A DNA stretch of 64,000 nt from an uncultured Saprospiraceae bacterium. GTDB taxonomy: Bacteria > Bacteroidota > Bacteroidia > Chitinophagales > Saprospiraceae. The translations under genes and the position numbers were made by a program. The notes beneath the pieces were generated by a model. It searched no databases, was not told the DNA's origin, and saw nothing but the letters and a program-made list of their open reading frames with translations. Shown one piece after another: positions 1,726-61,048 of the stretch. Each line of letters opens with the position of its first letter. Position 1 is the stretch's first letter. The stretch is taken from contig CAZDSU010000040.1 in NCBI GenBank assembly GCA_964508135.1, forward strand, positions 5-64,004. Direction: 5' to 3'.

Positions 1726-1729
1726 AATA

Positions 1730-1812
1730 TTGCTGGATTGTTATTATTGTTGAATTGTTTTGGAGCCATGGCCAGCAATCCCAACAATCAAACAATAATA
1801 ACAATCCAGCAA
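1730..1812. repeat. Imperfect 30-bp inverted repeat built from CAATC/CAACAAT-type words
   Basis: The left arm ttgctggattgttattattgttgaattgtt (1730-1759) is the reverse complement of the right arm aacaatcaaacaataataacaatccagcaa (1783-1812), apart from mismatches in a short central stretch. It starts 5 nt after the fabH stop and has no T-tract. Confidence 0.85.
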
Positions 1813-1817
1813 TTAAT

Positions 1818-18444: not shown

Positions 18445-19260
18445 TCACGTGCGATCCTTCGAAAACAACTGCTTCACCGCAGAAACCACAAACCCCGACA
18501 AGTTCATGTACGGTGGTTTCATCAACAACTGCACCCCGGTCAGCCCGACCCAACCAGCCATGGCAGCAAACGACAGGTCACCGAAACGGGTGAAGCCTCG
18601 GAAGTCGTGCATGTTGAGCCGCATCAGTTCGTACATCACAAAATCGGTGACGATATAGGCGCTGTTCACCCAGAACAGCAGCAGCATGACTCGTAACATG
18701 CGCCGCAACACCAGCGCCTCGTAGAGCTGCTGGCCACCCTCCTGTTTTTTGCGGAGCGCCGAAACCTTAAACCGGATGTAACGGTACGCCGCAAACTGGT
18801 AAGTGTAAAAGGTGAAAATGTAAAGTGCCATCTCCAGCCCACCATAAAATGGCGAATAAAACCGCCGTATCAAAAGCCCATCCGTCAGCAGCCACGCACC
18901 GAGAAAATAGGCAAACTGCGTCAGCGGAAGCAGTGCATGTTTGGCGTCGCTGCCCACAAACTTGTAGGTAGGGAACAGCCGCAACTTCACCGAAATATAC
19001 AACAGCACCCCGAACGACAGGGTGAAATACAGTGGCAGCGAAGTCAGGTGCGGGTTGGCGTGGTAGATGCCCCGCAGGATGAAAATATGGTGCAGCGCCG
19101 TCAGGGCATAGGCCATCAACAGCCCGAAAAAAGCGAGGTCGGCCCGCTTGTTCTCGTTTTTGCGGAGCAAAAAAACGACGGCCACCGCCCCGTTCAGTGC
19201 GACCGTTGCGCAAAGAACCAGAAAGGACAAGGTGGTTAGCGTTCCGGTGAAGAAATTCAT
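18445..19260 (-). CDS. Hypothetical polytopic membrane protein
   Basis: 271 aa with about 7 hydrophobic segments and no recognisable soluble domain or catalytic motif. Confidence 0.55.
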   Translation of the reverse strand: MNFFTGTLTTLSFLVLCATVALNGAVAVVFLLRKNENKRADLAFFGLLMAYALTALHHIFILRGIYHANPHLTSLPLYFTLSFGVLLYISVKLRLFPTYKFVGSDAKHALLPLTQFAYFLGAWLLTDGLLIRRFYSPFYGGLEMALYIFTFYTYQFAAYRYIRFKVSALRKKQEGGQQLYEALVLRRMLRVMLLLFWVNSAYIVTDFVMYELMRLNMHDFRGFTRFGDLSFAAMAGWVGLTGVQLLMKPPYMNLSGFVVSAVKQLFSKDRT

Positions 19261-19341
19261 TGTTGAATTGCTATATTGTTGAATTGCTATATTGTTGAAT
19301 TGCTATAAAACAATACAACAATATAGCAATTCAATAATCAA
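19260..19341. repeat. Three perfect tandem 16-mers (TTGTTGAATTGCTATA) plus a complementary arm
   Basis: The copies are at 19260-19275, 19276-19291 and 19292-19307. The complementary arm is caatacaacaatatagcaattcaataatcaa (19311-19341). The element fills the spacer between the PBP4 stop and the membrane-protein start. Confidence 0.9.
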
Positions 19342-20690
19342 TTTCCCTCGTACACCCCCTTCAGCACCCGCTCCATTTCCTTGCGGAGTGCGCTCATGCT
19401 GCCGGTGTAGTTGTTGTGCATGAAGCTGAAAATCAGGAGCTTGCCTTTTTTTGAAATCAGGTAGCCGCTCAGGTTGTGGTTATTACGGAGCGTACCGGTT
19501 TTGGCGAAAATATAGGGAGTGCCGCCATTGCGATAGTAGTCCTTGATGGTGCCATTGACGCCCCCGGCTGGGAAGATGCCAAACAGCCTCTCCCTCGGCA
19601 CCATTTGCTGGATTTTGCTCAGCAATGCCACCAATGAGCGGGGCGTCACGAGGTTGTACCTCGACAGACCGGAGCCATCCACCCATTTTGGCTCGTCGGG
19701 CAGGTCGTTGAGCAGGTTTTTCTTCGCAAAATCAATGGCCTGCTCGGTGTTCATCGTCCCAGTTCGCTGCCAGGAGCAGAGCAGCAGCAGTTGCTCCGCA
19801 ATGAAATTGTCGCTCTCCTGCATCATCAACGTGTAGAGGCTGTCTGCCTTGAGGCTGTACAGCGTTTTGGCGTCGGGAGGTGGCAACATGTTTGATTCCA
19901 GTAGGCTCACTTGTCGCTTGAGTGTGTCGGCCAGCACTTCGGTAATAAAGTGGGGCGTGGCATGAAACGGTACGTGCATCTCGAACTTCTTCCCGGTTTT
20001 GGCCAAAGTGTTTAGGGTAAACTGGTTCTCGTATTCAACCCGCCCGACGAAATCGTCTTCGTGGAGGGTTGAGTCATAATCGAGCGTTTTTGCCAAAAAA
20101 GCGGGCTTAACCTGAATGCCTCCTGTCGTGTCATTTTGGATAAAATGAGCGACATTAGCGTAAATGGGCAGCGGCGTTTTTTCCGATTGATAGTCGTAAA
20201 AATTGTCGTCCCACATCCAGCCAGAGCCATAACGTTGATCCTTGTAATTGGCGGGGCAGAACAGCAGTTGCTCCCGGCTGTTTTTCAAAAAATCAAAGAC
20301 CTGCGGGTTCTGCGTCAAGTGCGGGTTCAGAAAGCTGGGGTCGCCCGTGCCCCAGAACACGAGCAGGTTGCCTTGGCGGCTGTACTGCAATGCGGGTATG
20401 GAGTCGCCAAGTGTGCGCAGACTGGTGTACAGCGTCAGGATTTTTGTGTTGGAAGCTGGCGTGAAATACTTGTCAGCGTTGAACTCGTAGAGTGTTTTGC
20501 CCTCGGCGGGATCGTAGAGCGAAAACCCCGTGAACGCCTTTTTGAAAACTTCGGAGTCTTCGAGGTGGAGGTCATAAACCTTGGCTTCGACAGTCTCTTT
20601 TTCGGCTTTTTTCTTTTTGTTTTTTTGGCAAAAAGCACTGAAGGGCAGCAGCAGCGCCGTGGCGAAAAGTAGGAGGGTGAGTTTTTTCAT
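19338..20690 (-). CDS. dacB: D-alanyl-D-alanine carboxypeptidase/endopeptidase (PBP4, peptidase S13)
   Basis: 450 aa with a signal peptide. It has the SxxK motif in TPASNTKILT and the KTG motif in FAKTGTLRNNHNLSGY. Confidence 0.82.
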   Translation of the reverse strand: MKKLTLLLFATALLLPFSAFCQKNKKKKAEKETVEAKVYDLHLEDSEVFKKAFTGFSLYDPAEGKTLYEFNADKYFTPASNTKILTLYTSLRTLGDSIPALQYSRQGNLLVFWGTGDPSFLNPHLTQNPQVFDFLKNSREQLLFCPANYKDQRYGSGWMWDDNFYDYQSEKTPLPIYANVAHFIQNDTTGGIQVKPAFLAKTLDYDSTLHEDDFVGRVEYENQFTLNTLAKTGKKFEMHVPFHATPHFITEVLADTLKRQVSLLESNMLPPPDAKTLYSLKADSLYTLMMQESDNFIAEQLLLLCSWQRTGTMNTEQAIDFAKKNLLNDLPDEPKWVDGSGLSRYNLVTPRSLVALLSKIQQMVPRERLFGIFPAGGVNGTIKDYYRNGGTPYIFAKTGTLRNNHNLSGYLISKKGKLLIFSFMHNNYTGSMSALRKEMERVLKGVYEGN

Positions 20691-42772: not shown

Positions 42773-42781
42773 GTTCTAAGT

Positions 42782-42854
42782 AATTGTTGGCTTGCAGGAT
42801 TGTTCAATTGACTTGTGTTGCTCAACAATCAAACAATCCAGCAATCCAACAATT
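42782..42854. repeat. Inverted array of CAATC/CAACAAT words between ATP-grasp and GATase1 genes
   Basis: The left arm is aattgttggcttgcaggattgttcaattgac (42782-42812). The right arm is ctcaacaatcaaacaatccagcaatccaacaatt (42821-42854), an imperfect complement. The word family matches 1730-1812 and 51870-52328. Confidence 0.8.
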
Positions 42855-42873
42855 TTATTCCAAAATCAAACCA

Positions 42874-43872: not shown

Positions 43873-43942
43873 TTACAGGTGTTTTAAAATGGTGTAAAAG
43901 ATTATGGTTGAATTTTCGAACTTAGTCAAAAAATGATTTCGC

Positions 43943-43950
43943 TAAATTTG
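43943..43950 (+). promoter_or_regulatory. Candidate -7 promoter box upstream of the esterase gene
   Basis: taaatttg lies 111 nt upstream of ATG 44062. This is a motif match only. Confidence 0.3.
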
Positions 43951-44061
43951 CCTTAAATGGATTTGCTTTGTCGCGCTGTTTTCAGGAAAAGGGGTGGGGT
44001 AGAATGGCCGACAAAGCTAAGGCGAAATCCTGACAGCAAGCGCAAACTGCTTTGATTTTCA

Positions 44062-44937: not shown

Positions 44938-45032
44938 TGGTCGCCCAATTTATTGGCAACCGTATGTGCCGGGTTTCAATCTCAAAAAAACCAATAATAT
45001 CCATCGGTCTGCCCAATAAATTGGGCGACCAC
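44937..45032. repeat. 96-bp unit bounded by perfect 20-bp terminal inverted repeats (MITE-like)
   Basis: gtggtcgcccaatttattgg (44937-44956) is the exact reverse complement of ccaataaattgggcgaccac (45013-45032). The core is 56 bp. The unit begins at the last base of the esterase stop codon and ends 11 nt before the SDR ATG. Confidence 0.85.
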
Positions 45033-45043
45033 AATGCCTCACC

Positions 45044-45742: not shown

Positions 45743-45795
45743 TTGTGGATTTGTGGCACGGATTTCACTCATTTTGTATCAAAAATTTTACCAAC

Positions 45796-46344
45796 ATGAA
45801 AAGCTTCGCCACTTTACTCACCGCACTGATTTTGCCCATACTACTTTCTGCCCAATCAGAAGAAACCCTGAAAGTCCCCCGCCTTTCAAAAATGGACATC
45901 GGGCAATCCGGTTGCTCAGGCTATTTCCCGGAGGGCATGCCTAAGTTTGTGCTTGAAAAATCGGAGGATGGCGCCGATGTTTATACTTCGGAACTGGAAG
46001 TGGATGGCTATCTTTTTGGCTGTATCACCGTTCAGTTTACCGAGCCTTTTTCGGATTCATCGCCAGAGGAACTGGAGGAACTGCTCATAGGCTACCTGGA
46101 CTATCTGGAAGAAGCTTTTGATATTTATGATTCGGTCGGCGTGGGCAGGGGGCACACGCTCGAAAGCTGTCCCAGCGCAAGGGGCGTGATTGACTACTGG
46201 GATGACCTCGACGAAAATCATTTTGCCGTCAAAGGTTGGGTCAACCAAAAATACATCGGCGTTATGTTCATAGCTGGCGAAGCGGAGTACCCGCACTTCA
46301 ATTTGCAGCAGATGTACTTGGATGGGTTTAGGTTTGGGGAGTGA
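45796..46344 (+). CDS. Hypothetical secreted protein
   Basis: The ORF is 45448..46344 and overlaps the SDR gene out of frame. I take the start at ATG 45796, which gives the signal peptide MKSFATLLTALILPILLSAQ. I recognise no family. Confidence 0.5.
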   Translation: MKSFATLLTALILPILLSAQSEETLKVPRLSKMDIGQSGCSGYFPEGMPKFVLEKSEDGADVYTSELEVDGYLFGCITVQFTEPFSDSSPEELEELLIGYLDYLEEAFDIYDSVGVGRGHTLESCPSARGVIDYWDDLDENHFAVKGWVNQKYIGVMFIAGEAEYPHFNLQQMYLDGFRFGE

Positions 46345-46390
46345 GGGGCAGTAGGCTTTTTTCTCTATCTTCCCACCTTAAAACCCATCC

Positions 46391-47198
46391 ATGAATTTAC
46401 CTGGGAAAGAAACGGTTGAAACCAACCAACGATATTTGGACGAGGCAGGCGACACGACCTTTTACGGAAAAGGCAAGGTCAATATTATTGGGCAAAATGG
46501 AGTTTCTCTTTCCTTCATTCTTGGCATGGTAAAGTTCAAAGAACCTCTACCGTCAATACGGGAAAGGATATTGGCACTCCAACATCAAGTTTCAAACGAC
46601 CCGTATTTTGTCGAAATACCAAGCATTCAAAAGAAAATTGAGAGAGGCGGCTTTTTCTTTCATGCCACAGATGACTTGCCAGAAGTTCGAAAACTGTTCT
46701 ATGATTTTATCAAGACTATCGATTGCAGCTTTGAAGCGATGGTAGGCCGGAAAGTTCCTTCATTAATATGAAAATAGGCACAATGGCAAAGAAGCTGAGT
46801 TTTATGCTGACCTGCTTTCTCACTTATTGAAAAATAAGCTTCAAAAAGGCGGCAAGTTGACGCTGAACATTGCAGCAAGGGCAAATTCAACCAGAAACCA
46901 AAACCTCCAGCTTGCCCTTTCAAAAGCTATTGGTCGAAACCACAAAAAGGTTGGCAAGTCTGCCAAAACACATGTGGCTTTCAACGTTCAGAACCACTTG
47001 ACTGAGCCGCTTTTGAACATAGCTGATTACTTCTGCTGGTCAGTTCAAAGGATTTTCGAGCGAGGCGAAGTGCGCTATTACAATTTTTTAAAGGATAAAA
47101 TCTCGCTGGTGGTGGATTTGTACGATTCGGAAAGGTATCAAAATAGCCAAAACTACTACTCACCAAAACATCCACTATTGGCAAGCAACAAGCTATAA
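46391..47198 (+). pseudogene. DUF3800-family gene split by a frameshift
   Basis: ORF 46391..46771 carries the N-terminal YLDEAGDT block. ORF 46827..47198 carries the C-terminal LLNIADYFCWSV block. The second frame is already open from 46767 (YENRHNGKEAEFYADLLSHLL...), so the two ORFs overlap near 46766-46771. This is consistent with a single-base frameshift. The segment is AT-rich. Confidence 0.6.
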
Positions 47199-47253
47199 AA
47201 TAAAAAAGCCCGCCATTGCACTAAGAAGGATACCCTTCAACGACATGGAGTCG

Positions 47254-47297
47254 GAATTCATGCAACGCAGGATGTTGCAAAGTTATGAATTTTTTTT
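47254..47297 (+). terminator. Possible intrinsic terminator after the DUF3800 gene
   Basis: gaattcat-gcaac-gcaggat-gttgc-aaagtt-atgaatt forms a composite stem, followed by a T7 run. Confidence 0.4.
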
Positions 47298-47306
47298 AAG
47301 TTTTAC

Positions 47307-47340
47307 GACAACTTAGGACAACTTAGGACAATCGAGACTT
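47307..47340. repeat. Direct decamer repeat GACAACTTAG
   Basis: The sequence is gacaacttag gacaacttag gacaatcgag actt, upstream of polA. I see no complementary arm. Confidence 0.7.
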
Positions 47341-47412
47341 ACTCATCACGGCTTCTAGTCCAAAGAAATTGTTCAAATTCCCGCTATCTTTCCGCCCTAA
47401 AATTCACCCGCA

Positions 47413-50241
47413 ATGACAAACGACAAACGCCTTTTCCTCCTCGACGGCCACGCCCTCGTGTACCGGGCGCACTATGCATTCATCACCCGCCCACTCATCA
47501 ACTCCAAGGGCTGGGACACAAGCGCCATTACGGGCTTCGTACGCACCCTCACCGACCTCATCAACAACCAAAAGCCGACGCACTTAGCCGTGAGCTTCGA
47601 CCTGCCGGGCGGCACCTTCCGGGACGATATGTACCCCGCCTACAAGGCCAACCGGGACGCACAGCCGGAGGGCATCACCTTCGGGCTGCCGTGGATTGTG
47701 AAGATACTAAACGCTTGGAAAATCCCCATCCTCACGCTGCCACGTTTCGAGGCTGATGACGTGATAGGAACTATTGCGAAGAAAGCAGAAAAGGCTGGTT
47801 ATCAAGTATATATGGTGACGCCGGACAAAGACTACGGCCAGCTCGTGAGCCCCAACATCTTCATGTACAAGCCCGGCAAGGCGGGCGGCGAGGTAGAGAT
47901 TTGGGGCGAAAAAGAGGTCTGCGCCAACTGGGACATCCAGCACGTGGACCAAGTGGTGGACATCCTCGGTTTGCAAGGCGACGCCGTGGACAACATCCCC
48001 GGCGTGCCTGGCATCGGCCCGAAAACGGCTGCGACGCTACTCAAGGAATTCGGCTCGGTGGAAAACCTGCTCGAAAACGTGGACAAGGTGAAGGGCAAAA
48101 ACCAGGAGAAATTGCGGGATTTTGCGGAGCAAGCCATGCTCTCCAAAAAGCTCGCCCGCATTGATATTGACGCCCCCATCGCCTTCGACGAGGACGACTA
48201 CAACCTCGACCCCTTCGATCGGGAGGAACTGGCGGCATTGTTTAAAGAACTGGAATTCAGGACGCTGGGTGCACAAATACTCGGCGGCGATGGTACGCCG
48301 AATTCGGCACCGAAGCCTGCCGCAAAGCCCGCCGCCGCTGGTGCACAAGGCAATCTTTTCGGCGATACAGAGGAACCCGTTGAACGAAAAAGCGCCGCCC
48401 CGCCCATCCCCGTCCACTCGATGGCGGAGAAGAACGCCGAGAATACCCCGCACACCTACCACCTCACCGATACCCCGGAAAAGCGGGCGGAACTCGTCGG
48501 CATTTTATCCAAAGCAAAAACCATCTCGTTCGATACGGAGACGACGAGCGTGGACCAGATGCTGGCCGAACTGGTGGGCATGTCGTTCAGCGTGACGCCC
48601 TTCGAGGCGTGGTACGTGCCCGTGCCAGCCGACCGGGAGGAGGCTACGAAAATCGCCCAAGAATTCAAGCAAGTGCTTGAAAATGAGGCGATTGAAAAAA
48701 TTGGGCAAAACATCAAATACGACGCCGTGGTGTTCAAAAACTACGGCGTGGAGGTGGCTGGCTATTGGTTCGATACGATGATTGCGCACTACCTCATCGA
48801 GCCGGAACTGCGGCACAACATGAACTACCTCTCCGAAACCTACCTGAAATACCAGCCGATTTCCATCGAATCGCTGATTGGGAAAGGGGCGAAACAACTC
48901 AGCATGAGGGACATCCGGGTGGAGCGGGTGGCCGAGTACGCCGCCGAGGATGCCGACGTGACGCTGCAATTGGGCCATTATTTTCAACCAAAACTAAAGG
49001 AAGAGGGCCTGCAAAAACTCTACGACACGATGGAGCGCCCGCTCATCAAGGTCATCGTGGACATGGAGTACGAGGGCATCCGCATTGACGGTGACGTGCT
49101 GCGGGCGTACTCTGTGGAACTGGCAAAAAGCATCGCCGATTTAGAGTTGAAAATTTACGAAATGGCGGGCTTGCAGTTCAACATTGCCTCGCCCAAGCAG
49201 ATTGGCGAGGTGCTGTTCGACCGCATGAAATTGCCCTACCGCTGGGCAAAAACCAAGACCGGTGCCTACTCCACCGACGAGGCCATCCTAACGGAAATGG
49301 CGGTAGAGCACCCTTTCGTCGCCGAGATTTTGAAGCACCGTGGCCTGTCCAAACTCAAGTCCACCTACGTGGATGCGCTGCCCTTGCAGGTACACCCCCG
49401 CACGGGGCGGGTACACAGTTCGTTCAACCAGGCGCTGGCCGCCACGGGCCGCCTCGCCTCCAACAACCCCAACCTCCAGAACATCCCCATCAAGACGCCG
49501 GAGGGCCGCAAGGTGCGGGAGGCCTTCATCCCACGGGATGAAAACCACCAGCTGCTGAGTGCCGACTACTCGCAAATCGAGCTGCGCATCATCGCCGAAA
49601 TCAGCGGCGACGAGGCCATGATTGAGGCATTCCAGAAGAACCAGGACATACACCGGGCCACGGCAGCCAAGGTCTATGGCGTGCCCTACGAGGAGGTCAC
49701 CGGCGAGCAGCGCCGCAACGCCAAAACGGTCAATTTCAGCATTATTTATGGCGCTGGCGCAACGAACGTTTCACAACAACTCGGCATCAAGCGAGGCGAA
49801 GCTAAAGAACTGATAGACAACTACTTCCGGCAGTACAACGGCCTGAAAAACTACATGGAAAACACCGTGGAAAGCGCACGGGAAACGGGCTTCGTGAAGA
49901 CCCTGCTTGGCCGCCGCCGCTACATCCGTGACATTGACAGCCGCAACTCCCTCGCCCGCTCCAACGCCGAGCGGGTGGCCATCAACACGCCCATCCAAGG
50001 CACGGCTGCCGACCTCATCAAGGTGGCGATGATCAACATTCACCAAGCGCTGATTGACAAAAACCTAGGTACAAAGATGATTTTGCAGGTGCATGACGAA
50101 TTAGTTTTCGATGTGCCGACGGGCGAACTGGAGATAGTGAAGCCCATCATCCACGACCTGATGACGAATGCCATCCCGAACTTGAAGGTGCCGATTTTGG
50201 TGGAGATGGGGGTGGGGAAGAATTGGTTGGAGGCGCATTGA
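47413..50241 (+). CDS. polA: DNA polymerase I
   Basis: 942 aa. It has a 5'-3' exonuclease domain (LLDGHALVYRAHYA), a 3'-5' exonuclease domain (ISFDTETTS) and polymerase motifs A (LLSADYSQIELRI), B (RRNAKTVNFSIIYG) and C (QVHDELVF). Confidence 0.97.
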   Translation: MTNDKRLFLLDGHALVYRAHYAFITRPLINSKGWDTSAITGFVRTLTDLINNQKPTHLAVSFDLPGGTFRDDMYPAYKANRDAQPEGITFGLPWIVKILNAWKIPILTLPRFEADDVIGTIAKKAEKAGYQVYMVTPDKDYGQLVSPNIFMYKPGKAGGEVEIWGEKEVCANWDIQHVDQVVDILGLQGDAVDNIPGVPGIGPKTAATLLKEFGSVENLLENVDKVKGKNQEKLRDFAEQAMLSKKLARIDIDAPIAFDEDDYNLDPFDREELAALFKELEFRTLGAQILGGDGTPNSAPKPAAKPAAAGAQGNLFGDTEEPVERKSAAPPIPVHSMAEKNAENTPHTYHLTDTPEKRAELVGILSKAKTISFDTETTSVDQMLAELVGMSFSVTPFEAWYVPVPADREEATKIAQEFKQVLENEAIEKIGQNIKYDAVVFKNYGVEVAGYWFDTMIAHYLIEPELRHNMNYLSETYLKYQPISIESLIGKGAKQLSMRDIRVERVAEYAAEDADVTLQLGHYFQPKLKEEGLQKLYDTMERPLIKVIVDMEYEGIRIDGDVLRAYSVELAKSIADLELKIYEMAGLQFNIASPKQIGEVLFDRMKLPYRWAKTKTGAYSTDEAILTEMAVEHPFVAEILKHRGLSKLKSTYVDALPLQVHPRTGRVHSSFNQALAATGRLASNNPNLQNIPIKTPEGRKVREAFIPRDENHQLLSADYSQIELRIIAEISGDEAMIEAFQKNQDIHRATAAKVYGVPYEEVTGEQRRNAKTVNFSIIYGAGATNVSQQLGIKRGEAKELIDNYFRQYNGLKNYMENTVESARETGFVKTLLGRRRYIRDIDSRNSLARSNAERVAINTPIQGTAADLIKVAMINIHQALIDKNLGTKMILQVHDELVFDVPTGELEIVKPIIHDLMTNAIPNLKVPILVEMGVGKNWLEAH

Positions 50242-50252
50242 AAATGCCTACA

Positions 50253-50936
50253 TCACCTCGTAATTACCCGCATAAAATCCCACGCCACCAGCAAGGTCTC
50301 CCCCTCAAAATGCAGCCCCGGCGTCAGCCGCTTCTGATGCATCGCCAGTATTTCGGGGTCTTTTTTCAAAAAAGTAAAAATAGTGCGCATCACCTTGAAG
50401 TAACGGCCAAGCTCGTTCACCATTGGTACGTCACGGCTGCCGAGCAGCTCCATCAGCCGCCGGAAGCTGTCGAAATCGAAAGGTAGGTACTGCGTCGGAT
50501 AGCGGAAAGCGAGGTAGATGGACACCATCTGGTAGTTGTCGTGGTGGAAGTGGCTGTTGAGTTTGGAGCCGGGGTGGGCTTCCCGCCAGGCAGCCAGCAA
50601 CTCGTCGGAATGAAACACGAAGCGGCCAACCCGACCGTCCAAGTCCTTGGCCTCGTTGAAAAGGTCTTGAAAAGCATACCGCACGAACTCCCGGTCCATT
50701 TCGATGAACTTGAGCATCATCTCCTTCGGCTCGTAATGTTCCCGCTTCCAGAGGCGGCGAGAGCGGGAGTTTTCCAGACTGCGGTCGTACATCGTGCGGA
50801 AGTCCAGCGCCTCCACGTCCCAGTTTTCCTGAAAAATGCGCTGCGACTCCCACGGCAGGTAGGGGTCGTGCCGTGGGTTTTTGCGAAGAAAATTGGCGTA
50901 TTGCCCAATGGCATCGTTGAGTTTTTGCAGATTCAT
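50253..50936 (-). CDS. Hypothetical protein
   Basis: 227-aa soluble-looking ORF, convergent with polA with an 11-bp gap. I recognise no motif with confidence. Confidence 0.5.
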   Translation of the reverse strand: MNLQKLNDAIGQYANFLRKNPRHDPYLPWESQRIFQENWDVEALDFRTMYDRSLENSRSRRLWKREHYEPKEMMLKFIEMDREFVRYAFQDLFNEAKDLDGRVGRFVFHSDELLAAWREAHPGSKLNSHFHHDNYQMVSIYLAFRYPTQYLPFDFDSFRRLMELLGSRDVPMVNELGRYFKVMRTIFTFLKKDPEILAMHQKRLTPGLHFEGETLLVAWDFMRVITR

Positions 50937-51042
50937 ACCGGTAATTTCATGCAGTTTTTTCCCTCAAAACAAATGGAAGTACATTTGTCAGAAAAAATCA
51001 TCAAAAACTTGGCGGCGAAGCTACATATTTGCGGAAGTGGAC

Positions 51043-51103
51043 GGTTTGGTTTCAGGTTTAAAGTTTCAGGGTAGGCCCTGTCTGAAACCTGAAACCCAAA
51101 ACC
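51043..51103. repeat. Inverted array of GTTTCAGG words
   Basis: The left arm is ggtttggtttcaggtttaaagtttcaggg (51043-51071). The right arm is ccctgtctgaaacctgaaacccaaaacc (51076-51103). It lies in the divergent spacer upstream of the phosphoesterase gene. Confidence 0.8.
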
Positions 51104-51121
51104 TGGAACCGCTTAAACAGC

Positions 51122-51871
51122 ATGAAACTTATTCAAATCACTGACCTGCACGTTGCGAGCGAGGGCGAGTTCACCCATGGTGTGGACGTGCGGCAGAATT
51201 TTTTGGATATACTGCAAGCGGCCAAATCCTTCTCTCCAGACTACCTCATCCTCTCCGGCGACCTTGCCTACGAAACCGCCAACGAACAGGTTTATCGGTG
51301 GATGAAGTCGCAGCTTGATGACCTCGGCATCCCCTACGCCCCCATTGGTGGCAATCACGACAATTCTGCGCTGTTGGCGCGGGTTTTCGGGTTGGAACAC
51401 CTGCTCACCGACGGCAACCTTTACTACAAACTGCCCCTGCCTGAGCATACCCTGCTGCTGCTCGAAACATCCAATGGCACGATCACCGAGGCGCAACTGG
51501 TGTGGCTAGCCAATGAGTTGGCGCAACTAGACGCACCCGCCGTCATCTTCATGCACCACCCGCCGGTGGAAGGCGGTGTGCCCTACATGGACGTTAATTA
51601 TCCGCTTCGCAATATGGCCGATGTGCAGGAGGTATTGTACCAACACCCATTTCCTGTGTACATTTTCTGCGGGCATTACCATGTTGAAAAAATGCTTTGC
51701 GTAAAAAACCTTGTGGTGCACATCACACCAACCACCTACTTCCAGATGAAATGGCAACAACCAGGGTTCCTGCTCGACCACCTCAGAATCGGCCTGCGGG
51801 AAATCAACCTACGGCCCGATGGCGTAGTGGAAAGTGCGGTAGTTTACTACGATGGGAATAAAACGGAGTGA
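51122..51871 (+). CDS. Metallophosphoesterase (CpdA-like cyclic nucleotide phosphodiesterase family)
   Basis: 249 aa with the calcineurin-like motifs ITDLHV, SGDLA, GNHD, FMHHPP and GHYH. Confidence 0.8.
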   Translation: MKLIQITDLHVASEGEFTHGVDVRQNFLDILQAAKSFSPDYLILSGDLAYETANEQVYRWMKSQLDDLGIPYAPIGGNHDNSALLARVFGLEHLLTDGNLYYKLPLPEHTLLLLETSNGTITEAQLVWLANELAQLDAPAVIFMHHPPVEGGVPYMDVNYPLRNMADVQEVLYQHPFPVYIFCGHYHVEKMLCVKNLVVHITPTTYFQMKWQQPGFLLDHLRIGLREINLRPDGVVESAVVYYDGNKTE

Positions 51872-51902
51872 TTGTTTGATTGTTAAATTGCTTGATTGTT
51901 GG
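51870..51902. repeat. Left arm of the inverted repeat enclosing the four-helix-bundle gene
   Basis: The reverse complement of gattgtttgattgttaaattgcttgattgttgg matches 52298-52328 at about 29 of 31 positions. The arm overlaps the phosphoesterase stop codon. Confidence 0.8.
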
Positions 51903-51919
51903 ACTGCAAAACAACTACT

Positions 51920-52300
51920 ATGGGAGAGAAAAACTACCTCAAGCTCAACGATATTGATGCCTATAAAACAGCTTTTCACCTTTCGAATTATGTTTGGGAC
52001 CTGGTTGCACCGTGGGATTTTTTCGCAAAGAAGACAATAGGCGCTCAGTTTGTAGATGCTGCCGATTCCATTTCAGCAAATATTGCAGAGGGTTTTGGAA
52101 GGTGGAACAAGAAAGACAAGGTCAAATTTTACAGATACAGTCAAGGCTCTCGGAAGGAATGTTATGACTGGAACGAAAAGGCTCGTTACAGAAAATTGGT
52201 TACAGAAGAGCAATACGACCATATTTTTCAAGAACTGGAAAAGCTGGGCCCCGCCATTTCAAGGCTCATAAAATTTACCAATGAAAAACTGTCCCAATAA
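51920..52300 (+). CDS. Four-helix-bundle protein (23S rRNA intervening-sequence protein / Avd-like family)
   Basis: The ORF is 51896..52300, and I take the start at ATG 51920. AYKTAFHLSNYVWDLV...AADSISANIAEGFGR...KVKFYRYSQGSRKECYDW is the signature of the TIGR02436/PF05635-type family as I recall it. The gene is AT-rich compared with its neighbours. Confidence 0.8.
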   Translation: MGEKNYLKLNDIDAYKTAFHLSNYVWDLVAPWDFFAKKTIGAQFVDAADSISANIAEGFGRWNKKDKVKFYRYSQGSRKECYDWNEKARYRKLVTEEQYDHIFQELEKLGPAISRLIKFTNEKLSQ

Positions 52301-52328
52301 CAATCAAGCAATCTAACAATCAAGCAAT
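52294..52328. repeat. Right arm of the inverted repeat enclosing the four-helix-bundle gene
   Basis: The arm is ccaataacaatcaagcaatctaacaatcaagcaat. It overlaps the stop codon of the enclosed gene and ends 3 nt before the aminotransferase ATG. Confidence 0.8.
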
Positions 52329-52331
52329 AAA

Positions 52332-53474
52332 ATGCTTCTATCCTCCAAACTGCCGGGCGTCGGCGCCTCCATTTTCACCGTCATGTCGGCCATGGCCAAC
52401 GAGCACGGAGCCATCAACCTGGCGCAGGGCTTCCCTGATTTCGACTGCTCCGACCACCTCAAGGGGTTGGTGGACAAGTACATTCGACAGGGCTTCAACC
52501 AGTACGCACCCATGCCCGGTGTGCCTGCGCTCCGCAAAATCATGGCCGAAAAAATCAAGTCGCTATACGGCCTGACGGTGAACCCCGAAACGGAAATTAC
52601 CATCACCAGCGGGGCGACCCAAGCGCTCTACAGCGCCATTTCGACGTTCATCCGCCCAGATGACGAGGCGATTCTGGTCGAACCGGCCTACGACTGCTAC
52701 CGCCCCGCCATCCAGGTGAACGGAGGCAGGCCTGTCCTCTACGAGATGACCGCCCCCGACTACGCCGTTGACTGGCGGATGCTCGAACGCCTCATCACCT
52801 GGAAGACCCGCATGATTGTCATCAACACCCCGCACAACCCGACTGGCAGAACTTTGAAAGAAGCCGACTGGAAGGAACTGCAACACCTCGCCGTCAACCG
52901 GGATATCATCGTGCTTTGCGACGAAGCCTACGAGCACCTCGTCTTCGATGGCGAGCGGCACGAGAGCCTGCTTCGCTACCCGAAGATATTCGAGCGGGGC
53001 ATGGCGGTCTTTTCCTTCGGTAAAACGCTGCACACCACAGGCTGGAAGCTCGGCTGCATCGTGGCGCCGCCCGATCTTACGAAGGAGTTCCGAAAGGTGC
53101 ACCAGTTCAATGTCTTTGCCGTCAACACGCCGATGCAACACGCCGTGGCCGAGTACTTTGAACAGCCGAAGGAGTACTTGGCGCTAAACGATTTCTTTGA
53201 AAAAAAACGGGACTTCCTGCTCAATGCCATGTCGGGGTCGAGGTTCAAACCGTTGCACAGCGAAGGGTCGTACTTTCAGCTTTACGACTACTCGGCCATC
53301 AGCGACGAGCCGGACACGGATTTTGTGAAACGACTAATCCTGGAGCACGGGGTGGCGGCTATTCCAGTTTCCGTTTTTTACAGCAGCCACAAGCAGGAGC
53401 GGGTTATCCGGCTTTGCTTCGCAAAAAAAGAGGAAACATTGGCCAAGGCCGCTGCGCTTTTGAGCAAGATATAA
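52332..53474 (+). CDS. PLP-dependent aminotransferase, class I/II (YbdL/methionine-aminotransferase-like)
   Basis: 380 aa with INLAQGFPDF, QYAPMPG, INTPHNPTG and the PLP lysine context VFSFGKTLHTTGWKLG. Confidence 0.87.
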   Translation: MLLSSKLPGVGASIFTVMSAMANEHGAINLAQGFPDFDCSDHLKGLVDKYIRQGFNQYAPMPGVPALRKIMAEKIKSLYGLTVNPETEITITSGATQALYSAISTFIRPDDEAILVEPAYDCYRPAIQVNGGRPVLYEMTAPDYAVDWRMLERLITWKTRMIVINTPHNPTGRTLKEADWKELQHLAVNRDIIVLCDEAYEHLVFDGERHESLLRYPKIFERGMAVFSFGKTLHTTGWKLGCIVAPPDLTKEFRKVHQFNVFAVNTPMQHAVAEYFEQPKEYLALNDFFEKKRDFLLNAMSGSRFKPLHSEGSYFQLYDYSAISDEPDTDFVKRLILEHGVAAIPVSVFYSSHKQERVIRLCFAKKEETLAKAAALLSKI

Positions 53475-53491
53475 TCGGTACTTAAATTCAA

Positions 53492-53499
53492 TAGCTTTG
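53492..53499 (+). promoter_or_regulatory. Candidate -7 promoter box for fadD
   Basis: tagctttg lies 56 nt upstream of ATG 53556. Confidence 0.35.
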
Positions 53500-53555
53500 T
53501 GCAAAGACCAAACTTTGTAATTTTAGCCCAATCCAATTTTTAAATTTAAACAATT

Positions 53556-55214
53556 ATGACTGAGCAAAGACCTTGGCTGAAAAATTATCCGAAGGGAGTG
53601 CCCGCCAATATTGACGAAAGCGCCTACCCCTCGCTGGTGGCTCTTTTGGACGATACCTTCAAAAAATTCTCGGACAAAAAGGCTTTCGCCTGTATGGGAA
53701 AAGCAATGACCTATGCACAGGTTGACCGCTACTCCACCCAGTTTGGCGCATACCTGCACTCCCGGGGATTGGAGCCTGGTGACAAGATAGCCCTGATGAT
53801 GCCCAACCTCTTGCAGTATCCCATAGCCCTGTTCGGCTGTATGCGGGCCGGGCTGGTCATCGTCAACACCAACCCACTGTACACCCCTCGGGAGATGCGC
53901 CACCAGTTCACTGATTCTGGCGTGAAGGCCATCGTGATTTGCGAAAACTTTGCCGCCAACCTGCAGGAGGTGCTTCCCGACACGCAAATCAAAACTATCA
54001 TCGTCACCAGTATCGGCGAGATGCTGGGGTGCAAGGGCATCTTCGTGAACTTTGCGGTGCGCTACATCAAGCGCATGGTGCCAGACTTCTCTTTGCCCAA
54101 TACCGTCACCTTTACCAATGCTTTGGCGCAAGGCAAACAATTTACCATCAAGCAGTTCCAGCACAACCCAGAAGATGTGGTATGCCTGCAATACACGGGT
54201 GGCACCACTGGCGTGGCCAAGGGGGCCATGCTCACCAACCGCAACCTCGTGGCCAACATGATGCAGATCAGGGCTTGGATTGCGCCCTCCGGCATGGGAG
54301 AGAACGAGGTCGGCCTGTCACCGCTACCGCTGTACCACATCTTCGCCTTTTCGGTCAATTGCTTGGCGCTGTTCAGCCTTGGCGCACTCACGGTGCTGGT
54401 GGTCAATGCCCGTGACCTGCCCTCGGTGATGAAGGAGTTCAAGAACTACAAAGTGACCATCATGACAGGGGTTAACACCCTGTTCAATGCCTTGCTCAAC
54501 CACCCCGATTTTGCTTCGCTCGACTTCAGTGCCCTGCGGTTTGCACTTGGCGGTGGCATGGCCGTGCAAAAGGCGGTGGCCGAAAAATGGCGCAAGGTGA
54601 CTGGTGTCCCGCTCGTTGAGGGCTTCGGCATGACCGAGTCCTCGCCTGTTGCCAGTGTGAACCCACTCGATGGCGCTGGCCGTCTGGGCTGCATCGGTCT
54701 GCCCGTGCCCTCTACCGACATGCGCATCGTGGACGATGCCGGAAACCCATTGCCGCAAGGCGAAACTGGCGAAATACAAATCAAAGGCCCACAAGTGATG
54801 AAGGGCTACTACAACCGCCCGGACGCCACCGCCCAAACCATCAAGGACGGGTGGCTCTGCACCGGTGACATCGGACTGATGCACCCGGACGGCTACTTCC
54901 AAATCGTTGACCGCAAAAAGGACATGATACTCGTATCGGGCTTCAATGTTTATCCCAACGAAATCGAGGACGTGGTGATGGAGCACCCGAAGGTGCTGGA
55001 GTGTGCCGCCATCGGCGTTCCCGACGAGAAATCGGGCGAGGTGGTGAAGATTTTTGTGGTAAAAAAAGACCAATCACTGACCGAAAAGGAAGTGTTGGAG
55101 CATTGCCGAGAGGGGCTTACTGGCTATAAAATACCGAGATCGGTGGAGTTCAGAAAGGAGCTGCCGAAGACGAACGTGGGAAAGATTTTGAGGAGGAAGT
55201 TGCGGGAAGAGTAG
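53556..55214 (+). CDS. fadD: Long-chain fatty acid-CoA ligase
   Basis: 552 aa with the AMP-binding motif LQYTGGTTGVAKGAMLTNRNL, GFGMTE, TGDIG and the C-terminal lysine context PKTNVGKILRR. Confidence 0.9.
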   Translation: MTEQRPWLKNYPKGVPANIDESAYPSLVALLDDTFKKFSDKKAFACMGKAMTYAQVDRYSTQFGAYLHSRGLEPGDKIALMMPNLLQYPIALFGCMRAGLVIVNTNPLYTPREMRHQFTDSGVKAIVICENFAANLQEVLPDTQIKTIIVTSIGEMLGCKGIFVNFAVRYIKRMVPDFSLPNTVTFTNALAQGKQFTIKQFQHNPEDVVCLQYTGGTTGVAKGAMLTNRNLVANMMQIRAWIAPSGMGENEVGLSPLPLYHIFAFSVNCLALFSLGALTVLVVNARDLPSVMKEFKNYKVTIMTGVNTLFNALLNHPDFASLDFSALRFALGGGMAVQKAVAEKWRKVTGVPLVEGFGMTESSPVASVNPLDGAGRLGCIGLPVPSTDMRIVDDAGNPLPQGETGEIQIKGPQVMKGYYNRPDATAQTIKDGWLCTGDIGLMHPDGYFQIVDRKKDMILVSGFNVYPNEIEDVVMEHPKVLECAAIGVPDEKSGEVVKIFVVKKDQSLTEKEVLEHCREGLTGYKIPRSVEFRKELPKTNVGKILRRKLREE

Positions 55215-55258
55215 GGGTAAAAAGAAGTTTCGAGGGACAAGTTTTGAGTTAAAAAAAA

Positions 55259-55289
55259 GGCGGCTGGGCACATGCCCGCCGCCTTTTTT
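55259..55289. terminator. Bidirectional intrinsic terminator between fadD and rny
   Basis: An A8 run is followed by the stem ggcggctgggca-ca-tgcccgccgcc and then a T6 run. The genes on both sides converge on it. Confidence 0.72.
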
Positions 55290-55308
55290 ATGCTTATAAT
55301 TTCAGGAT

Positions 55309-56958
55309 TTAACGTGCGAACTGCACCGCCCGCTTCTCCCGGATCACGGTCACTTTGATTTGTCCTGGGTACTGCATTTCCCCTTGGATTTTCTGTGAAA
55401 TCATGAAGGCAAGGTCGTCGGCATAGGCATCGGTGACCTTCTCGGCTTCCACGATAACCCTTAGCTCACGGCCAGCCTGCATGGCATAAGCCTTGGAGAC
55501 GCCTTCGTGCGCCATGGCGATTTCTTCGAGTTCGCCGATGCGCTTGAGGTAGCTTTCGAGGATTTCACGGCGGGCACCTGGGCGGGCACCTGAGATGGCG
55601 TCGCAAGCCTGCACGAGTGGTGAGATGATGTTGTTCATCTCGATTTCGTCGTGGTGAGCACCCACGGCGTTGCAAATGGCCTCTATCTCGCCGTGTTTCT
55701 CACAAATATGCATACCGACAATGGCGTGGGAAAGCTCGGTTTCCTCCTCTGCCACCTTCCCGATGTCGTGCAACAGGCCGGCCCGTTTTGCCAATTTTGC
55801 CTGTTTTGGGTTGAGGCCAAGCTCGGCAGCCATGATGCCGCAAAGGTTAGCGGTCTCAATGGAGTGCTTGAGCAGGTTCTGACCATAGGAGGAGCGAAAG
55901 CGCATCCGACCGACCATTTTTATCAGGTAGGCGTTGAGGCCGTGAACACCAAGCTCGATGACCGTGCGCTCGCCGATTTCCACGATTTGCTCATCCAACT
56001 GCTTGCGGGTCTTGGCCACCACCTCCTCGATACGGGCAGGGTGGATACGGCCGTCGGTCACGAGTTTTTTAAGTGCAAGGCGAGCGACTTCCCGGCGAAT
56101 CGGGTCGAAGCTGGAAATGACGATGGCCTCTGGCGTATCGTCCACCACGATTTCAGCCCCGGTAGCTGCCTCGAGTGCTCGAATGTTCCGGCCTTCCCGA
56201 CCGATGATTTGCCCCTTCATGTCGTCGGAGTCGAGCGGGAACACCGATACGGTGTTCTCGATGGTGTACTCCGAGGCCATGCGCTGGATGGTGGCGATGA
56301 TGATTTTCTTGGATTCTTTGGCAGCGTCCAATTTGGCTTGGGTGATGGTATCTTTCACGAGAGCCATCGCTTCGGTCTCAGCCTTGCCCTTGATGGCCCG
56401 GAGGAGTTCTTCCTTGGCCTCGCCCTGGGTTAGCCTGGAGATACCTTCGAGTGCCTTGATGCGCTCTTCGTTGGCGGCTTCAAGTTCTTCCTTCCGTTTG
56501 GCCACGATTTTGAGCTGCTTGTCAAGATTTTCCCGGACAGTGGCTATTTCCGCTACTTTTTGGTCATAGTCGGCGTCCCGGGTGTCCAGTTCCTTGATGC
56601 GGTCTTTGAGCTTGTCTTCCTTCAATTGGAGGTCTTTCTCAAGGCCCCGGATTTCCAGTTCCCGCTCTTTGACGGAGACCATTTTTTCAGCTTTTTCCTT
56701 GTCAAAATCGGCCCGCATGGCGTTGAAGCGGTCTTTTGCCTCTTGCACTTTGCGTTGTTTGATGGTTTCGTTCTTCGATTCCGCCTCGTCGAGGATTCGC
56801 TTGGCGGTGTCCTGTGCTTTCTTGATTTCTTGGTCGGTCTTTGAATTTACTTCGTCAAGTAGCGTCTGCTTCTTGCTTTTCATGGTAGCCTGGATGATAA
56901 AATACCCAGCGACCAGCCCGACGACTAGCCCAATGGCCAGTCCGATTCCTATTTCCAT
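55309..56958 (-). CDS. rny: Ribonuclease Y
   Basis: 549 aa. It has an N-terminal TM helix, a long coiled coil, a KH domain (GQIIGREGRNIRALE) and an HD domain (LLHDIGK...GAHHD). Confidence 0.93.
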   Translation of the reverse strand: MEIGIGLAIGLVVGLVAGYFIIQATMKSKKQTLLDEVNSKTDQEIKKAQDTAKRILDEAESKNETIKQRKVQEAKDRFNAMRADFDKEKAEKMVSVKERELEIRGLEKDLQLKEDKLKDRIKELDTRDADYDQKVAEIATVRENLDKQLKIVAKRKEELEAANEERIKALEGISRLTQGEAKEELLRAIKGKAETEAMALVKDTITQAKLDAAKESKKIIIATIQRMASEYTIENTVSVFPLDSDDMKGQIIGREGRNIRALEAATGAEIVVDDTPEAIVISSFDPIRREVARLALKKLVTDGRIHPARIEEVVAKTRKQLDEQIVEIGERTVIELGVHGLNAYLIKMVGRMRFRSSYGQNLLKHSIETANLCGIMAAELGLNPKQAKLAKRAGLLHDIGKVAEEETELSHAIVGMHICEKHGEIEAICNAVGAHHDEIEMNNIISPLVQACDAISGARPGARREILESYLKRIGELEEIAMAHEGVSKAYAMQAGRELRVIVEAEKVTDAYADDLAFMISQKIQGEMQYPGQIKVTVIREKRAVQFAR

Positions 56959-57098
56959 GATGTCAAAAGGTTAAAATGGTAACATGGTTGCGTGGTTTTC
57001 CGGCCTAAACTTCCGTAGTGCTTTTCGCTGAAATGCGAGCGCCACGCAGCTATTTGGCCAGCCAGCCATTTAACCAAAAAATATAACAGCAGGAAAAC

Positions 57099-57395
57099 TC
57101 AGGTCGTCGCTTCGTCCAAAAGCGATTCAATGCGGGAAAGTTTGTCGGAAAGGTCTGGTGAAGAAGCAGTCGTCTGGCTTGTGGCTTTGTGCAAATCCAC
57201 CGCGTAGGCCAAGAGCGCCATGGCAAGGCAGTCCTGTTTTTCACGGTTGGCATAGGTCAACTGGAACTTGTTCACTTTTTCGTTGACCTCTTTCACTATC
57301 TGGCGGATGACAGGCTCGTCATTCGCCTTTATTTTCAAAGGATATGGTCGCCCCGCAATCGTCACGGTCAGTTGTTTGCTATCTTGTTCTTCCAT
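57099..57395 (-). CDS. zapA: Cell division protein ZapA
   Basis: 98 aa. LTVTIAGRPYPLKIKANDEPVIRQIVKEVNEKV...DCLAMALLAYAVDL fits the ZapA pattern. The position next to rny/pheT is common in Bacteroidota. Confidence 0.75.
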   Translation of the reverse strand: MEEQDSKQLTVTIAGRPYPLKIKANDEPVIRQIVKEVNEKVNKFQLTYANREKQDCLAMALLAYAVDLHKATSQTTASSPDLSDKLSRIESLLDEATT

Positions 57396-57398
57396 ATC

Positions 57399-57689
57399 CT
57401 AAGCGTTTTGAAGCCACTCAATACATTTATCTATCTCGTTGATGTATTGGTCAATTTGCTTTCTCAACTTTTGGTTGCTTTCCGAATCATCTCCCCGCTG
57501 CCCGGCCAGTGCCTGCTGCGAGTTAGTTAATCTTTCTGTCAATTCGCCGGTGCGCTCTTGCTGTGCTTCGAGGTCGGCCTTGAGCTTGTTATTTTCCTTC
57601 GAAAGAACAGCGTTTTGCTGGCGCAATGCGGTCATCGCCTCCACCAGTTGCCGTACTTTCTGTTCGATATTTTCGAGTTGTTGGGTCAT
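57399..57689 (-). CDS. Coiled-coil protein (ZapB-like, hypothetical)
   Basis: 96 aa, heptad-rich and Gln/Glu/Leu-rich. It lies immediately upstream of zapA with a 3-nt gap. Confidence 0.5.
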   Translation of the reverse strand: MTQQLENIEQKVRQLVEAMTALRQQNAVLSKENNKLKADLEAQQERTGELTERLTNSQQALAGQRGDDSESNQKLRKQIDQYINEIDKCIEWLQNA

Positions 57690-57697
57690 GTGTTCAA

Positions 57698-60208: not shown

Positions 60209-60269
60209 TTTTCTGAATTTGAAGGGGCGAAGATAGGAATATGATAATTACCCTCGCATGAATGTTGGC

Positions 60270-60994: not shown

Positions 60995-61010
60995 TTGCAG
61001 TAATTTTATA

Positions 61011-61018: not shown

Positions 61019-61048
61019 AGGTTTTGGCCGTAAAATTCAAACGTTTCC

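Follow-up and report, generated by a model that had tools for sequence, protein, structure and literature searches.

Intervening sequences (IVS) that carry an ORF are known in the 23S and 16S rRNA genes of several bacteria, including those of Coxiella, Leptospira and the Xanthomonas type, as well as in CPR rRNA inserts, and their ORFs encode proteins of the PF05635 family. In these elements the ORF lies in the loop of a stem formed by complementary termini, and ORF-less versions exist as well. The best described case is the Coxiella IVS, which has a 28-bp terminal stem cut by RNase III and 2-3 tandem GACAGAT heptamers plus one degenerate copy directly upstream of the ATG of its ORF; the heptamer copy number varies between strains, and reductive evolution of the ORF was reported. 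A related four-helix-bundle protein, Avd, is part of an RNA-protein complex in diversity-generating retroelements (DGRs). Intergenic sets of 2-6 tandem 7-nt words, the TAACTGA repeats, were described in Beggiatoaceae, Cyanobacteria and Bacteroidetes (PMC4679880), lying mostly just upstream of start codons, with a patchy distribution that suggests horizontal transfer and with no known mechanism; the cyanobacterial STRR heptamers are probably of a similar kind. Finally, in the REPIN-RAYT systems (PMC3116915), a transposase gene appears to be flanked by inverted copies of a short repeat that is also dispersed through the genome as ORF-less palindromic doublets.

Here we describe a PF05635 gene that is bracketed by inverted arrays of a short word but lies between two protein-coding genes. 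It was found in a 64,000-nt stretch of DNA (the window) from an uncultured Saprospiraceae bacterium (assembly GCA_964508135.1, contig CAZDSU010000040.1). The locus and the related palindromes of the window comprise the following features:

51122..51871, plus strand, upstream host gene, a calcineurin-like (cpdA-like) metallophosphoesterase.
51869..51900, no strand assigned, left arm, four tandem 8-nt words NNATTGYT (TGATTGTT TGATTGTT AAATTGCT TGATTGTT), followed by a degenerate fifth word, GGACTGCA, at 51901-51908.
51920..52300, plus strand, gene for a 126-aa basic protein of the PF05635/TIGR02436 family, with a predicted four-helix-bundle fold.
52299..52330, no strand assigned, right arm, four tandem words ARCAATNN (AACAATCA AGCAATCT AACAATCA AGCAATAA), the reverse complement of the left-arm words.
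51871..52328, plus strand, the whole unit of arm, ORF and arm.
52332..53474, plus strand, downstream host gene, a methionine aminotransferase.
1729..1813, no strand assigned, ORF-less palindrome of the same ATTGYT words with a 23-nt loop.
19252..19345, no strand assigned, ORF-less ATTGYT palindrome that fills the spacer between two co-oriented minus-strand genes, a PBP4-type carboxypeptidase and a 271-aa gene.
42783..42853, no strand assigned, ORF-less ATTGYT palindrome between convergent genes.

The original prediction, that an Avd-like gene here sits in the loop of a palindrome built of repeated words, is confirmed. The arms 51871-51900 and 52299-52328 are 30 nt long, 93% (28/30) complementary and 398 nt apart, the right one ending with AGCAAT. 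The stop codon TGA of the phosphoesterase gene (51869-51871) forms the first three bases of the first left word, the TAA stop of the inserted ORF overlaps the first word of the right arm, and the aminotransferase ATG (52332) lies 3 nt after the complementary part of that arm. The GC content falls to 0.40-0.44 across the insert, against 0.52-0.6 around it. The arm score of 24 is reached by 0.66% of 4422 cross-locus arm pairs and by 2.1% of synthetic 4-word arrays built from the word composition of the family, thus exceeding random arrays of the same words. Moreover, the 481-nt transcript is predicted to fold with the long-range stem in both the MFE and the centroid structures (z = -3.5). The three ORF-less palindromes also fold into hairpins, of -40.6 kcal/mol (z = -8.3) at 1729..1813, where the inverted repeat is 31 nt long and 94% complementary, of -40.2 kcal/mol (z = -10.3) at 19252..19345, where it is 41 nt long and 88% complementary, and of -29.1 kcal/mol (z = -5.3) at 42783..42853.

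The start of the ORF was assigned to the ATG at 51920, because homologues begin M(G/A)EKNYLKLN. The product scores above the curated cut-offs of both family models (PF05635, 76 bits against 33.8; TIGR02436, 77.1 bits against 24), and PF05635 is its only Pfam match. The AlphaFold2 model has four helices (pLDDT 86, pTM 0.80), and in Foldseek it matches Xcc0516 (2GSC, TM 0.81/0.91), BT_0352 (2RLD, TM 0.74/0.82) and, at TM about 0.72, Avd chains in 4DWL and 8UB7, the sequence identity to Avd being about 9-10%. Xcc0516 was described as a homopentamer, and the 2GSC and 2RLD entries each list five chains; judging from the published descriptions of Xcc0516 and Avd, the protein encoded here is probably pentameric as well. 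The host genes were identified by PF00149 (E=1.8e-14) and weak PRK11148 similarity for the phosphoesterase, and by NF006569 (546 bits) and PF00155 for the aminotransferase. There is no second copy of the gene in the window, and no match to PADLOC or PHROGs models was found. Three scans of viral contigs (IMG/VR), with single proteins and a subfamily alignment, found no relative, so that a phage vector is not supported.

The unit recurs far beyond this genome. Among 67 loci with 60-94% identical proteins from Bacteroidota, Patescibacteria, Gammaproteobacteria, Ignavibacteria and others, ATTGYT occurs at 3.1 per 100 nt upstream of the ATG, against 0.12 in the background (about 26-fold enrichment), and RCAAT at 3.0 per 100 nt downstream of the stop, against 0.11, whereas the opposite orientation occurs at about 0.15 per 100 nt. 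Both sides carry at least two words in 54 of 67 loci. An unbiased hexamer count recovers ATTGTT as the top shared word, the spacing is 8 nt in 233 cases, the mode is 4 words per arm, and the stop codon overlaps the first downstream word in 22 loci. Non-orthologous copies at other genomic sites (loci L003, L004, L006 and L063) are similar in DNA sequence to the window from 51868-51871 to 52328. The gene occurs in several copies per genome, and its carriers include the cultured Pedobacter alluvionis DSM 19624, P. agri and P. jeongneungensis JCM 17626.

The words seem to belong to the gene and not to the host. Inverted arrays were found around 12 of 13 distant non-DGR members of the family. Four distant PF05635 genes lie within a few kb of an ATTGYT copy in the same contig, and each has its own word, GTATTT, CAAAT, ATGGAA or TTTCTAA. 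Eight of nine non-DGR plasmid genes have inverted arrays of other heptamers or octamers. One locus (L163) has direct rather than inverted arrays. Cyanobacterial PF05635 genes are also flanked by heptamer arrays; in contrast, the published TAACTGA repeats are described as direct arrays without an inverted partner, and that report does not mention this protein family. The Avd gene beside a reverse transcriptase (locus L169) has no word arrays. In addition, a Chitinophagaceae clade uses ATTATT and has clade-specific substitutions at residues 62, 72 and 75. However, this is a single clade, and the association of words with protein subfamilies could reflect shared ancestry rather than recognition.

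Comparison of the phosphoesterase-aminotransferase junction in relatives clarifies the history of this copy. The loci L001 and L002, which have the gene at this site, also have the arms, and the ATTGYT word is retained in both arms at a divergence where synonymous sites are near saturation (dS 0.86-1.16), while the two spacer positions between cores vary freely across the arrays of the family. A sister species (locus L082) has an ATTGYT palindrome with a 13-nt loop and no ORF at the same junction, and its right arm is nearly identical to those of the window, L001 and L002. Thus the empty site with a simple palindrome that had been predicted does exist. At that, the ORF appears to be ancestral and the bare palindrome derived by ORF loss, and not the reverse: the aminotransferase tree recovers the ORF-bearing taxa as a clade in only 15 of 200 bootstraps, which together with dS favors ancestral presence over a single insertion. 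At this site the gene has been inherited vertically, with dS similar to its neighbors and GC tracking the host at r = 0.88, and movement is therefore rare. More generally, ATTGYT clusters of at least 3 words occur 21 times outside the flanks of the primary ORF in 462 kb of carrier loci, about 15 of them being true ORF-less sites, and 0 times in 368 kb of control loci.

The ORF is under strong purifying selection, with dN/dS of 0.026-0.035 compared with 0.10-0.13 for the aminotransferase. The protein is basic (pI 8.87; the subfamily has a mean pI of 9.16 and a mean net charge of about +5 per monomer), and in the window protein the positive charge is concentrated in residues 59-95, which hold much of the conserved sequence. 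Both neighbors are co-oriented with the ORF in 48 of 54 loci, against a 37.5% baseline (p = 6e-15), with median gaps of 54 and 51 nt. A scan for sigma-70-type promoters and terminators found nothing above shuffled expectation, so the gene is probably read through from the host promoter.

Taken together, these data are best explained by a discrete, widespread genetic unit that is a non-ribosomal counterpart of the ORF-bearing rRNA IVS, with RNase III cutting, protein-word binding and mobility inferred rather than shown; we give this reading a probability of roughly 55%. The locus differs from the IVS in that its flanks are protein-coding genes, with no rRNA or other known RNA family detected by Rfam at 51000-53000 or in 20 related loci, and in the strong purifying selection on its ORF. 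In the transcript, the two arrays would pair and put the gene in the loop of a long stem whose base holds the upstream stop codon and the downstream start codon, a type of substrate that RNase III cuts in rRNA IVS. The 6-nt core of each word may be a sequence-specific recognition site, most probably for the basic protein that the unit encodes. If the protein is a ring-shaped oligomer, one word per subunit would fit the 7-8-nt period and the usual 4-5 words per array, perhaps in the manner of the TRAP-type ring proteins, although this is a mechanistic analogy only, without homology. Binding next to the ATG would give autogenous control of translation or processing. The ORF-less palindromes are, partly by inference, derivatives or satellites of the unit. 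However, across the family the conserved feature is the word core rather than exact arm-to-arm pairing: the mean within-locus score is 14.5, against 15.6 for synthetic arrays of perfect words, and covariation at the variable positions is weak (0.642 against 0.593 +/- 0.023, z about 2). Sense and antisense duplex energies and G-U counts do not differ, with RNAduplex on 100-nt flanks also poorly discriminating, so nothing points to RNA rather than DNA.

A less likely alternative is that the only functional feature of the insert is a long RNA stem for RNase III excision or mRNA insulation, whereas the words are a by-product of replication slippage and selection for pairing, since tandem words keep pairing in any register, and are not recognized by the protein. 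The predicted stem of the window, the near-perfect hairpins of the ORF-less palindromes, the variation of word copy number between close relatives and between Coxiella strains, and the demonstrated excision of the Coxiella IVS all agree with this view. However, selection for pairing alone explains neither the periodic pattern of a conserved 6-nt core and a free 2-nt spacer nor the retention of the same hexamer from Patescibacteria to Bacteroidota while synonymous sites saturate. Moreover, many loci have arms that would pair only as 6-bp helices broken by mismatches, and the direct arrays of L163 cannot pair.

Still more doubtful is a DNA transposon or MITE, in which the arrays would be terminal inverted repeats with multiple binding sites for a transposase encoded elsewhere, the four-helix-bundle gene would be cargo, and the ORF-less palindromes would be MITE-like derivatives. 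Indeed, the unit is discrete, has inverted ends, and occurs at different genomic sites, ORF-less copies are dispersed, and the same spacer holds palindromes of different word families in sister species. On the other hand, there is no target-site duplication signal (the longest shared direct k-mer outside the arms averages 3.91 in 54 loci, against 3.93 +/- 0.13 in permutations), no transposase travels with the unit, and no partner gene is conserved across loci. The cargo is always the same family, under very strong purifying selection, the words change with the cargo subfamily, which a trans-acting transposase would not require, and the strong co-orientation with host operons points to selection on expression of the gene. 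The locus resembles the REPIN-RAYT systems in its dispersed ORF-less palindromes, but it encodes a 126-aa helical bundle and not an HUH/Y1 (IS200/IS605-like) transposase, and its arms are tandem word arrays rather than single REP hairpins. Chance landing of the gene in an ordinary terminator-like or REP-like hairpin, although the window and its relatives carry many intergenic palindromes, some built from other words, is contradicted by the same words flanking the same protein subfamily in different phyla, by different words flanking different subfamilies within one contig, and by the lack of ATTGYT clusters in the control loci. A decayed DGR, suggested only by the Avd-like predicted fold, is contradicted by the purifying selection, by the lack of arrays at L169, by neighbors (PolA, phosphoesterase, aminotransferase, acyl-CoA ligase, RNase Y and PheT) that include no reverse transcriptase, and by the absence of a template and variable repeat pair, the only direct repeat of at least 35 nt in 42000-62000 being a 74% chance-level pair; the original prediction had likewise excluded a DGR.

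The PF05635/TIGR02436 family is very large, has no known function outside DGRs, and has members in rRNA inserts, cas operons and housekeeping operons. We found no prior description of word arrays around non-ribosomal PF05635 genes within the collection of full texts searched, and their recurrence across many phyla suggests that the inserts long known in rRNA genes are one case of a much wider genetic unit. A broader possibility, which we regard as tentative, is that PF05635 proteins are oligomeric, sequence-specific readers of tandem 7-8-nt words, each subfamily paired to its own word, and that gene and arrays form a self-contained module that regulates or processes the operon transcript it sits in and seeds ORF-less word palindromes around the genome; on this view ORF-bearing rRNA IVS, Bacteroidota word palindromes and at least part of the cyanobacterial and Beggiatoa heptamer repeats would be one phenomenon. 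If the gene always travels with inverted arrays of a cognate word, the family gains a concrete biochemical hypothesis, that of a protein that reads tandem words, the origin of rRNA intervening sequences gets a general frame, as one landing place of a wider element, and abundant unexplained intergenic repeats, such as word palindromes and heptamer arrays, gain a candidate protein partner.

The gene bracketed by inverted arms, which the original prediction placed in a spacer between protein-coding genes in the manner of a 23S rRNA intervening sequence, is confirmed as follows:
51871-51900, left arm, tandem 8-nt words reading TGATTGTT TGATTGTT AAATTGCT TGATTGTT;
51920-52300, ORF encoding 126 aa;
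52299-52328, right arm, the complement of the left.

The arms are 30 nt long, 28/30 complementary, and 398 nt apart, and the ORF between them matches PF05635 (76 bits against a cut-off of 33.8) and TIGR02436 (77.1 against 24). Upstream lies a calcineurin-like phosphoesterase whose TGA stop forms the first bases of the first word, whereas the ATG of a downstream methionine aminotransferase follows the right arm by 3 nt. GC content drops to 0.40-0.44 over the insert. The 481-nt transcript was predicted to fold with the long-range stem in both the MFE and centroid structures (z = -3.5), and the arm score of 24 is reached by 0.66% of cross-locus arm pairs and by 2.1% of synthetic arrays built from the same words. 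In agreement with the original prediction, no reverse transcriptase and no template/variable repeats were found nearby; the neighbors are PolA, an acyl-CoA ligase, RNase Y, and PheT. In addition, a 226-aa ORF between polA and the phosphoesterase gene (50253-50936, minus strand) has no match in Pfam, NCBIfam, or PADLOC.

The described locus is one copy of a recurring unit. The protein belongs to a tightly conserved subfamily, in which the best 120 database hits are 67-92% identical. A scan of one genome per species confirmed 169 stretches and returned 80 loci from Saprospiraceae, Bacteroidales, Chitinophagaceae, Pedobacter, Ignavibacteria, Gammaproteobacteria, Bdellovibrionales, Dadabacteria, Peregrinibacteria, and many Patescibacteria. 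In the 67 loci where the flanks could be measured, ATTGYT occurs upstream of the ATG at 3.1 per 100 nt, against 0.12 in the rest of the same loci, and RCAAT occurs downstream of the stop at 3.0 per 100 nt, against 0.11, whereas the reverse arrangement is found at only 0.20 and 0.13. Both sides carry at least two words in 54 of the 67 loci, and an unbiased count of hexamers shared by the two flanks recovers ATTGTT as the top word in most loci. Consecutive words are 8 nt apart in 233 cases, 16 nt in 31, and 9 nt in 13, and the modal array has 4 words. In 22 loci the stop codon is part of the first downstream word, and in 8 loci the last upstream word abuts the ATG. Copies at other genomic sites (loci L003, L004, L006, and L063) align to the window from 51868-51871 to 52328, and thus the unit ends at the outer edges of the arms.

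In locus L010 (about 2910-3470) the polarity is reversed, with a complete GATTGT/ACAATC palindrome preceding the ATG and GATTGT words following the stop, so that the ORF lies between palindromes rather than inside one. In locus L018 (4660-5293) the 574-nt loop of an ATTGYT/RCAAT word palindrome holds no four-helix-bundle ORF but about ten tandem copies of a roughly 21-nt unit containing GCAGTCGCGCA, so it may carry a different cargo. Two copies of the ATTGYT-type gene lie within 1.4-3.3 kb of each other on one contig in a Bacteroidales MAG and a Flavobacteriales MAG (L009 and L011, both on contig JBBAAT010000086.1; L072, 1174-1563 and 2974-3378).

The words belong to the gene rather than to the host. 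Four distant PF05635 genes, all scoring above the Pfam cut-off, turned up by chance within a few kb of an ATTGYT copy in the same contig, and each is bracketed by inverted arrays of a different word: GTATTTNN, CAAAT/ATTTG, ATGGAAN, and TTTCTAA/TTAGAAA. Moreover, among ten plasmid-borne family members, eight of the nine non-DGR genes have inverted arrays of yet other 7-8-nt words, namely AGGGTGT, GTCAGAA (twice), GGAGATA, AAGGGAA, GGTTYAAG, GGCAGAG, and GGTGACA. The ninth, from a Pseudanabaena plasmid (L163), is flanked by long direct heptamer arrays, (GCTAAAA)n upstream and (GCCAAAA)n downstream, with more than ten copies each. The Legionella gene that sits beside a reverse transcriptase, a true DGR Avd, has none. 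Within the ATTGYT subfamily, one Chitinophagaceae clade (L021, L023, L029, and L042) uses the core ATTATT instead of ATTGTT and carries clade-specific substitutions at residues 62 (to H), 72 (to S), and 75 (to K), inside a conserved basic segment; this is a single clade and therefore only a lead. Locus L074 uses ATGGTT. Finally, the published Coxiella IVS shows the same design, with a 28-bp terminal stem cut by RNase III and two or three GACAGAT heptamers plus one degenerate copy directly before the ATG of the ORF, the copy number differing between strains.

A metagenome scan with the aminotransferase found three relatives that keep the phosphoesterase-aminotransferase junction but lack the gene. 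The first (L082, aminotransferase 86% identical) has an ORF-less ATTGYT palindrome with a 13-nt loop and a right arm nearly identical to that of the window; the second (L081, 90% identical) has a palindrome built from different, TTGATA-type words; and the third (L083, 74% identical) has none. Two other relatives, L001 and L002, carry the filled site. The aminotransferase tree groups the five close taxa in 200 of 200 bootstraps, but recovers the three filled taxa as a clade in only 15 of 200, and the dS of the gene to L001 and L002 (0.86, 1.16) is at least that of the aminotransferase (0.73, 0.53). Therefore, the ORF was probably ancestral at this site and was lost in L082. The L082 loop, AATGGGCAATGCC, contains ATGGG followed by CAAT, matching the first and last bases of the ORF, which is suggestive only.

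Further palindromes were found in the window itself:
1729-1813, ORF-less ATTGYT palindrome;
19252-19345, ORF-less ATTGYT palindrome, in the spacer between the PBP4 gene and a 271-aa gene;
42783-42853, ORF-less ATTGYT palindrome;
4516-4571, palindrome of GTGAAC-type words with 23-nt arms (91% complementary) and a 10-nt loop, possibly belonging to another word family in the same genome.

The three ATTGYT palindromes were predicted to fold as strong hairpins (-29 to -41 kcal/mol, z from -5 to -10). Those at 1729-1813 and 19252-19345 have near-perfect stems, including the spacer positions, whereas the arms of ORF-bearing copies, such as 51871-52328, and of the L082 palindrome that lost its ORF (2413-2500) are less well matched, which hints at two origins or ages of ORF-less palindromes. 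ATTGYT clusters of at least three words occur 21 times outside the flanks of the primary ORF in 462 kb of carrier loci, about 15 of these being true ORF-less sites, and 0 times in 368 kb of unrelated loci. In the spacer between the PBP4 gene and the 271-aa gene, where the window has an ATTGYT palindrome, sister species instead have palindromes of TTTACGA words (L171, 1740-1800; L173, 2860-2925; L175, 2860-2925) or TTTCATGG words (L176, 2885-2955). Thus the same spacers hold palindromes of different word families.

The gene is functional and basic, and probably depends on host transcription. Its dN/dS against L001 and L002 is 0.035 and 0.026, lower than for the aminotransferase (0.10-0.13), and the protein is 93-94% identical, while the phosphoesterase is only 72-75% identical. 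The GC content of the ORF is about 10 points below that of the host and tracks it (r = 0.88), so residence is long-term. Both neighbors are co-oriented with the gene in 48 of 54 loci, against a 37.5% baseline (p = 6e-15), with median gaps of 54 and 51 nt, roughly the length of the arrays, and no sigma-70-type promoter-like or terminator-like site stands out. In plasmids, family genes are wedged inside functional operons, between cas6 and cas4 in two cyanobacteria (one being the Pseudanabaena plasmid), between cas10 and cmr3, and between sufA and sufB in Riemerella. The AlphaFold2 model is a four-helix bundle (pLDDT 86), closest to Xcc0516 (TM 0.81/0.91), described in the literature as a homopentamer, and BT_0352, then to Avd and the DGR RNA-protein complex. 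The subfamily proteins have a mean pI of 9.16 and a mean net charge of about +5, and in the window protein the positive charge is concentrated in residues 59-95.

Taken together, these data describe a discrete and conserved unit of array, ORF, and inverted array, with words specific to the gene subfamily, embedded co-directionally in operons, under strong purifying selection, and accompanied by ORF-less palindromes that appear to be its derivatives. As to its most likely mode of action, we infer that the arrays pair in the read-through transcript and form an RNase III-type stem, as in rRNA intervening sequences, and that the word core is a protein-recognition site. The latter inference rests on several observations. 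The ATTGYT core is kept across phyla and between the window and L001/L002, a divergence at which synonymous sites are near saturation, whereas the 2-nt spacer between cores varies freely across the family. Coexisting paralogs keep distinct words, and the only component that travels with the words is the basic protein. If that protein is a ring-shaped pentamer like Xcc0516, then by our own estimate of the geometry a 7-8-nt period and 4-5 words per array would fit one word per subunit.

On the other hand, several results speak against exact pairing being the selected feature. Within-locus arm scores average 14.5, no better than synthetic arrays of perfect words (15.6), covariation at the spacer positions is weak (0.642 against 0.593 +/- 0.023), and sense and antisense energies do not differ. 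Movement must be rare, as copies sit at fixed sites through speciation, no target-site duplication is seen, and no relative was found in viral contigs.

The unit most likely works like an ORF-bearing rRNA intervening sequence, but lacks the defining location of that family, since it is not in an rRNA gene. It resembles REPIN-RAYT systems in layout but encodes no transposase, and it is not a DGR. Tandem heptamers upstream of start codons, the TAACTGA repeats (PMC4679880), have been described without a protein partner or mechanism, and in the literature searched we found no report of word arrays around non-ribosomal PF05635 genes. The unit described here offers a testable function for a very large family of unknown function, and a common frame for several unexplained repeat classes.
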